From: Escherichia coli
GTDB taxonomy: Bacteria > Pseudomonadota > Gammaproteobacteria > Enterobacterales > Enterobacteriaceae
Assembly: GCF_009931435.1 (NCBI RefSeq)
Contig: NZ_CP043414.1
Direction: 5' to 3' (one strand)
DNA: 64,000 nt
The notes beneath the pieces are model-generated. The model was not told the origin of the DNA and made no database searches. It saw only the letters and a program-made list of their open reading frames with translations. Position 1 is the first letter of the stretch. Each line of letters starts with the position of its first letter. This document shows, piece by piece, positions 48,947 to 49,310 of the stretch. The translations under genes and the position numbers were made by a program.

Positions 48947-49310
48947 GCCCTTCTCCCTTTGTTACAACCTGTCATCGACAGCAACATTCATGATGGGCTG
49001 ACTATGCGTCATCAGAAGATGGCTTAAATCCTCCACCCCCTGGCTTTTTTATGGGGGAGGAGGCGGGAGGATGAGAACGCGGCTTCTGTGAACTAAACCG
49101 AGACCATGTAAGGAATTTCGTGAAGTTGCTTGCAAAAATCGTGGCGATTTTATGTGCGCATCTCCACATTACCGCCAATTCTGTAACAGAGATCACACAA
49201 AGCAACGGAGGGGCGTAGGGGCAAGGAGGATGGAAAGAGGTTGCCGTATAAAGAAACTAGAGTCCGTTTAGGTGTTTTCACGAGCACTTCACCAACAAGG
49301 ACCATAGATT
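48947..49310. promoter_or_regulatory. Divergent malK / malE control region with MalT boxes and CRP sites
   Basis: MalT-box hexamers GGA[GT]GA at 49056-49061, 49066-49071, 49069-49074 and 49225-49230; CRP-like site tgtaacagagatcaca at 49182-49197 and weaker tgtgcgcatctccaca at 49152-49167. Confidence 0.75.

Follow-up and report, generated by a model that had tools for sequence, protein, structure and literature searches.

The malK/malE spacer of an Escherichia coli contig, very probably the control region common to the divergent promoters malEp and malKp

The 364-bp non-coding spacer at positions 48947 to 49310 of the window, by which we mean the whole 64,000-nucleotide stretch of E. coli DNA that was analyzed, is very probably the control region that malEp and malKp, the divergent promoters of the malB locus, have in common; as such it is an already known and ordinary feature, present here as an intact copy. 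Its boundaries were exactly those given in a preliminary description of this DNA, with malK occupying positions up to 48946 and malE positions from 49311 on, and it sits between two divergent gene groups, malK-lamB-malM and malEFG, whose first genes are as follows.

47831 to 48946, minus strand: coding sequence of malK, which heads malK-lamB-malM (NCBIfam NF008233, MalK equivalog, E = 1e-232)
49311 to 50501, plus strand: coding sequence of malE, which heads malEFG (NCBIfam NF007011, MalE equivalog, E = 7e-234)

Downstream of malK lie lamB (46419-47759) and malM (45256-46185), and downstream of malE lie malF and then malG. All six products (MalK, LamB, MalM, MalE, MalF, and MalG) were recognized at the NCBIfam equivalog level, in the order and orientation expected for malB, and the RefSeq annotation of genomes with 100% identity concurred with the malM-lamB-malK and malE-malF-malG gene calls. 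When complete E. coli genomes were searched with a 901-bp query centered on the spacer, a match was found in 5422 of the 5426, with flanks annotated malK and malE.

The spacer aligned without gaps to positions 4246420-4246783 of K-12 (NC_000913.3), with 356 of the 364 positions identical (97.8%); the K-12 position equals 4295730 minus the window position. Identity to K-12 was complete in the five MalT boxes and both of their registers offset by 3 bp, in the decamer of MalT site 2, in both −10 hexamers, and in two CRP cores out of three, and the spacer is an ortholog of the region mapped in K-12, its motifs occupying the same aligned positions. We also scanned a species-representative genome collection with a degenerate MalE-peptide pattern, which yielded 120 loci; the divergent malK/malE arrangement was found at 89 loci, including three E. 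coli sequences that were obtained separately. Spacers from 25 non-Escherichia Enterobacteriaceae species, together with those of K-12 and E. albertii, were then aligned against the window. The MalT sites, numbered in what we take to be the manner of the K-12 literature and compared with what we take to be the extended MalT consensus, GGGGAKGAGG, are listed here with a T tract that accompanies them.

49027 to 49040, minus strand: malK-proximal MalT site (site 3), with registers offset by 3 bp, GGAGGA at 49029-34 and GGTGGA at 49032-37; identical to K-12
49045 to 49050, unstranded: T6 tract between MalT sites 3 and 4, outside the recognized boxes; identity about 0.9 or higher in 25 species
49054 to 49064, plus strand: MalT site 4, with registers GGAGGA at 49056-61 and GGAGGC at 49059-64; mean identity 0.96; identical to K-12
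49064 to 49076, plus strand: MalT site 5, with registers GGAGGA at 49066-71 and GGATGA at 49069-74; 11 of 12 positions invariant in 25 species; identical to K-12
49210 to 49219, plus strand: degenerate MalT site 2, GGGGCGTAGG; 8/10 match to GGGGAKGAGG; 8 of 10 positions invariant in 25 species
49223 to 49232, plus strand: malE-proximal MalT site 1, GGAGGA at 49225-30, at about −38.5 from malEp; GGAGGATG invariant; identical to K-12

GGA[GT]GA hexamers had been described in a cluster at 49056-49074 and at 49225-49230, and all of them were present on the plus strand, at 49056-61 (GGAGGA), 49066-71 (GGAGGA), 49069-74 (GGATGA), and 49225-30 (GGAGGA); a fifth, on the minus strand at 49029-34, was absent from that list. 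Judged by their frequency in the rest of the window, 0.25 such hexamers would be expected in 364 bp, and the spacer holds five (Poisson P = 6e-6); when the spacer was shuffled 5000 times with its dinucleotides preserved, the shuffles contained a mean of 0.51 and a maximum of 4, with 0/5000 reaching 5. MalT site 2, which contains the GGCGTAG element and is fixed 13 bp upstream of site 1, had been overlooked because it lacks a GGA[GT]GA hexamer. Within site 4, GGGGAGGAGG (49054-49063) matched the extended consensus at 10/10 positions, and the extended 10-mers of the two malK-proximal registers matched it at 7/10 and 9/10; the malK-proximal block as a whole, AATCCTCCRCCCC (49027-40), had a mean identity of 0.92 in the 25 other species, with 8 of 12 positions invariant. 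The sequence itself shows two registers 3 bp apart at each of the three malK-end boxes (49029/49032, 49056/49059, and 49066/49069), and both were kept across the 25 species. Each register of site 5 lies 10 bp from its partner in site 4 (49056/49066 and 49059/49069), making the two sites a direct repeat. A promoter-proximal MalT box faces each gene, in addition to the direct-repeat boxes, at a position near −37 or −38 that depends on the predicted transcription starts. For the T6 tract at 49045-50, a role in DNA bending or as a spacer is only a guess.

To locate CRP sites, a plain search was made with the consensus TGTGAN6TCACA; with up to 3 mismatches allowed it found 212 matches in the whole window against 225 expected, which is chance level. 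As this search was uninformative, we replaced it with a position weight matrix (PWM) derived from 106 CRP ChIP-seq sites of enterotoxigenic E. coli (ETEC) H10407 (PMC4287617 Table 1), from which the malE/malK site itself had been excluded. Four sites in the spacer are relevant here.

49182 to 49197, unstranded: strong CRP site TGTAACAGAGATCACA, at about −76.5 from malEp; 13.8 bits; identical to K-12
49153 to 49168, unstranded: middle CRP site TGTGCGCATCTCCACA, at about −105.5 from malEp; 6.4 bits, 2 mismatches to consensus; identical to K-12
49119 to 49134, unstranded: distal CRP site CGTGAAGTTGCTTGCA, farthest from malE, at about −139.5 from malEp; 5.7 bits
49087 to 49102, unstranded: weak fourth CRP-like site TGTGAACTAAACCGAG; 4.8 bits, rank 142; core identical to K-12

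The first of these, already described as a strong CRP-like site, proved to have a single mismatch to the consensus; it ranked third of the 63,985 window positions scored, and its 13.8 bits exceeded the median of the training sites, 12.9 bits. The same 16-mer, TGTAACAGAGATCACA, is the exact CRP site under the malE/malK ChIP-seq peak of ETEC H10407 (PMC4287617), and genomic SELEX placed both malE and malK among the CRP targets, with multiple CRP sites in the malK/malE spacer (PMC3105977). Five positions in the spacer scored at least 4 bits, against 1.05 expected. The sites at 5.7 and 6.4 bits are weak and would not be called on sequence alone; because the loose consensus occurs at chance level, such weaker sites cannot be called from the motif and are assigned by the K-12 alignment and by conservation across species. 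That conservation was clearest in the half-sites: the GATCACA half of the strong site (49191-97) and the TTTTATGTGCGC half of the middle site (in an island at 49149-59) were invariant across species, and the TTCGTGA and GCAAAA halves of the distal site (49117-37) were both conserved. Three adjacent CRP sites (49119, 49153, and 49182), with conserved half-sites and fixed spacing, lie between the MalT clusters. The CRP-like site at 49087, beside MalT box 5, is presumably the one footprinted in vitro in K-12; its mean identity was 0.40, and it was unconserved outside Escherichia, whereas the other three CRP sites were conserved. As it is not conserved outside that genus, it is probably dispensable. 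Elsewhere in the window, the top PWM match was a perfect CRP consensus, TGTGATATAGTTCACA (13112-13127, 17.6 bits), which falls in DNA that related genomes annotate as yjcB / pdeC (c-di-GMP phosphodiesterase), and TGTGATCTTGCGCATA (27057-27072, 10.5 bits) has exactly the sequence of the CRP ChIP-seq site within aphA of ETEC H10407 (PMC4287617).

The promoter elements, predicted starts, and ribosome-binding sites of the two genes were placed as follows.

49001 to 49006, minus strand: malKp −10 hexamer CATAGT (ACTATG on the plus strand), invariant in 25/25 other Enterobacteriaceae species
48994, minus strand: predicted malKp transcription start (+/-1), 7 nt downstream of the −10 hexamer
49253 to 49258, plus strand: candidate malEp −10 hexamer GAAACT, with a conserved A.ACT core (49254-58, mean 0.85)
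49265 to 49266, plus strand: malEp transcription start predicted from the −10 position
48950 to 48957, minus strand: putative malK ribosome-binding site GGGAGAAG, 3-10 nt upstream of the ATG; mean identity 0.91 in 25 other species
49297 to 49301, plus strand: malE ribosome-binding site AAGGA, 10 nt upstream of the ATG; conserved in the alignment

The MalT box at 49029-34 on the minus strand lies 28 bp from the −10 hexamer CATAGT, and the box at 49225-30 on the plus strand lies 28 bp from GAAACT; for malKp, the distance from −10 hexamer to MalT box was fixed at 28 bp in all 27 comparison sequences. A start at 48994 would put the malK-proximal box, 49029-34, at −37.5. At the other promoter, TATAAA at 49247-52 is the better-looking −10 candidate; its mean identity was 0.55, however, and it was rejected as unconserved, so that the conserved GAAACT at 49253-58 is the more likely and, judged by its conservation, the probable malEp −10 hexamer. 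The two predicted starts would lie about 271 bp apart, which we take to be the start-to-start distance for malEp and malKp in K-12. A scan of the region for sigma-70 promoters and terminators found neither a sigma-70 consensus promoter nor a terminator, and the missing consensus promoter fits with promoters that depend on activators.

Two further segments of the untranslated leaders were conserved. The malE 5′ UTR segment at 49276-49287 reads CACGAGCAC here and TCCACGAGCAC in most other genera, and the malK 5′ UTR segment at 48961-48968 reads GTTACAAC here and GTAACAAC in K-12 and most E. coli. We also considered whether the malK leader RNA might be structured, and rejected the candidate hairpin CUGUCGAUGACAG, which was no better than shuffles (z = +1.8) and was broken in several genera.

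In the 25-species alignment conservation was concentrated in islands, namely ACTATG at 49001-06, AATCCTCCRCCCC at 49027-40, TTTTTTATGGGGGAGGAGRYGGGAGGATGAG at 49045-76, TTCGTGA...GCAAAA at 49117-37, TTTTATGTGCGC at 49149-59, GATCACA at 49191-97, GGGGCGTAGG at 49210-19, GGAGGATG at 49225-32, and A.ACT at 49254-58. Mean identity to the window across the 25 species was 0.84 at MalT and CRP site positions versus 0.60 elsewhere (Mann-Whitney P = 3e-16), and when the layout of sites was shifted circularly along the spacer, 0/363 shifts reached the observed conservation. With MalT box 4, the three CRP sites, and MalT boxes 2 and 1 as anchors, no distance between them varied among the 27 comparison sequences, and the linkers between these anchors were largely unconserved despite the fixed spacing. 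Over the approximately 170 bp from MalT box 4 to box 1 there were zero indels in the 27 Enterobacteriaceae comparison sequences, the box 4-box 1 distance being 169 bp in 27/27. The same 169 bp recurred in Serratia, Yersinia, Hafnia, Rahnella, and Photorhabdus, where GGCGTAG likewise precedes box 1 by 13 bp; most of the other Enterobacterales examined had 169 bp, and Xenorhabdus had 168 and Mixta 170. The sole spacing variation in the assembly was one base fewer between MalT boxes 3 and 4 (49034-49056), which occurred in six species (Enterobacter cloacae, Mangrovibacter, Enterobacter sp. BIGb0383, Pseudescherichia vulneris, Escherichia sp. ESNIH1, and Shimwellia; loci L014, L029, L015, L028, L056, and L110) and which may bear on the 3-bp shift of register considered below. 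Together, the conserved islands and the invariant spacing fit a fixed MalT/CRP nucleoprotein assembly. The preliminary description had proposed such an architecture, and it is supported by the gap-free K-12 alignment, the ETEC ChIP-seq 16-mer, the SELEX results, and the footprinting in 25 species; the motifs that it listed hold good, but the list was incomplete, lacking the minus-strand MalT box, MalT site 2, two of the conserved CRP sites, the unconserved CRP-like site at 49087, and the 3-bp-offset registers.

We propose that the region would work in the following way. Both malEp and malKp would depend on activators, their −35 elements being poor or absent. MalT, once activated by maltotriose and ATP, would multimerize and bind cooperatively; at the malK end it would occupy three asymmetric boxes, one oriented toward malK at about −37.5 and the 10-bp direct repeat oriented the opposite way, and at the malE end it would occupy two boxes, GGGGCGTAGG and the GGAGGA at about −38.5. 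Between the MalT clusters three cAMP-CRP dimers (at 49119, 49153, and 49182) would bend the DNA, and the stretch of about 210 bp would fold into a single nucleoprotein complex that activates both promoters. CRP would draw the malK-end MalT out of a register of higher affinity, in which it would be non-productive, and into the one offset by 3 bp, which would be correctly placed relative to the −10 hexamer. The outcome would be that the transport genes need both maltodextrin, through MalT, and the absence of glucose, through CRP.

In the K-12 work of Raibaud, Vidal-Ingigliardi, and Richet from 1989 to 1996, both promoters were reportedly found to lack a usable −35 element and to be activated jointly by MalT and cAMP-CRP over about 210 bp, and in the K-12 model credited to Raibaud in 1989 and to Richet and Vidal-Ingigliardi in 1991, CRP is said to reposition MalT by 3 bp, with the box at −37.5. 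Starts at 48994 (minus strand) and 49266 (plus strand) would put the CRP centers of the spacer at −76.5, −105.5, and −139.5 relative to malEp; the set −37.5, −38.5, −76.5, −105.5, and −139.5 presumably represents the K-12 MalT and CRP positions. As far as its sequence goes, the window holds every element that the K-12 model needs, and from the analogy with K-12 we infer the protein occupancy, the transcription starts, and the repositioning in this strain. Published work has described MalT activated by maltotriose and ATP as multimerizing, binding cooperatively to arrays of MalT boxes, and recruiting RNA polymerase (PMC4381067, PMC10427625, PMC6906923), and a less active complex containing MalT only has been proposed to form at malEp and malKp when CRP is displaced (PMC3161199).

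The spacer differed from that of K-12 MG1655 by eight substitutions (48963, 49016, 49079, 49103-4, 49124, 49204, and 49209), and 0/8 touched an invariant position; those at 49103-4 flank the CRP-like site at 49087. When three other full-length E. coli alleles and E. albertii were compared, six of the eight matched E. albertii, and these six bases look ancestral in that comparison; the only haplotype-specific changes were 49124 T>A and 49209 T>A. The latter adjoins MalT site 2 directly on its 5′ side. The former lies inside the distal CRP site, where it changes CGTGAT to CGTGAA and accounts for the drop of about 3 bits in the score of that site, from 8.6 bits for the K-12 allele to 5.7 bits; with a cost of this size, quantitative behavior might differ from that of K-12. 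We consider it unlikely that the region, although orthologous, has been retuned, so that, in comparison with K-12, the changes at 49124 and 49209 make it less dependent on CRP or alter the strength of its promoters. The haplotype is indeed rare, with 18 of 5412 E. coli genomes matching at ≥99% and the remainder at 97.5-98.1%, neither E. albertii nor any of the three other full-length E. coli alleles has A at either position, and T is the majority base at 49124 across genera, all of which, with the lowered PWM score, would be in keeping with retuning. However, both positions vary between genera, Enterobacter cloacae also having CGTGAA and other species having C or G at 49124; neither position falls on an invariant position of the cross-species footprint; the spacing is unaltered; and the strongest CRP site and every MalT box are intact. 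A more particular suggestion, that this rare haplotype of a deep-branching lineage shifts the response of maltose transport to cAMP-CRP relative to mainstream E. coli through 49124 and 49209, strikes us as quite improbable; if it were true, the haplotype would represent naturally occurring cis-regulatory variation in a textbook nucleoprotein switch. It is hardly credible that the G-rich hexamers are incidental, either as Shine-Dalgarno-like sequences, which GGAGGA does resemble, or as part of a 67-codon ORF (49002-49205, minus strand), for although that ORF runs uninterrupted here for 67 amino acids, K-12 and 22 of the 25 other species carry stop codons within its frame, which excludes it as a hidden gene as well, conservation falls in discrete blocks corresponding to protein-binding motifs, the hexamers are enriched far above composition, and a search of the spacer against Rfam at E up to 1 gave no match.

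The reading that we retain, an intact malEp/malKp control region, met with no contradicting evidence and may be compared with related systems. With the malEp-malKp region of K-12 malB it shares the flanking genes, the 364-bp length, and the gap-free alignment. According to Vidal-Ingigliardi and coworkers in 1991, whose work PMC8265627 cites, MalT-dependent promoters are said to combine a proximal box near −37 or −38 with two direct-repeat boxes. We take malPp, malSp, malZp, and the Klebsiella pulAp/pulCp promoters to share with malEp and malKp the logic of a proximal MalT box and a cooperative, multimeric MalT; unlike malEp and malKp, however, they presumably do not form a divergent pair with a common 210-bp MalT and CRP assembly. 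The malPp promoter is presumably CRP-independent at the promoter itself. Four MalT sites have been described for pulAp/malPp800 (PMC10427625). In Vibrio, as in E. coli, a MalT box precedes malK, and malK and malE are divergent, and MalT boxes with the GGCGTAG element were also present at the Vibrio loci examined; the Vibrio spacer, in contrast, is 640-760 bp long, compared with 364 bp in E. coli, and encodes the 5′ UTR-derived sRNA Vsr217 (PMC8265627). Unlike the Vsr217 region of Vibrio, the E. coli malK leader, of about 48 nt, has no significant structure and no Rfam match.

A much shorter malK/malE spacer, of only 205 bp, was observed in the complete genome of E. coli JJ2434 (NZ_CP013835.1; L126:2501-2705). 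The 159-bp deletion that it represents (window 49066-49224) ends in the directly repeated GGAGGATG of MalT boxes 5 and 1, removes all of the CRP sites together with MalT site 2, and joins the two MalT clusters. An assembly error could account for this spacer, or it could be a natural variant that does not depend on CRP.

Other parts of the window were also compared with available genomes. For dnaB (30000-30900), 1 of 5426 genomes (2020CK-00188) matched at ≥99%, the next best matching at 98.3%, and the yjcB-pdeC stretch (12800-13450) had only 90-95% identity to 5347 genomes. The window is DNA of a rarely sequenced, divergent E. coli lineage. The closest-matching genome changed between the parts compared (dnaB, yjcB/pdeC, and pspG/qorA at 32300-32950), which suggests a recombination mosaic.

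The malEp/malKp control region is a classic bacterial case of synergistic activation by two regulators, and as a discovery its presence here amounts to little. What the analysis yields as by-products is an exact coordinate map of all the sites, two lineage-specific substitutions with possible quantitative effects, and independent comparative evidence that the architecture is rigid across the Enterobacteriaceae and that the fourth CRP site is unconserved.
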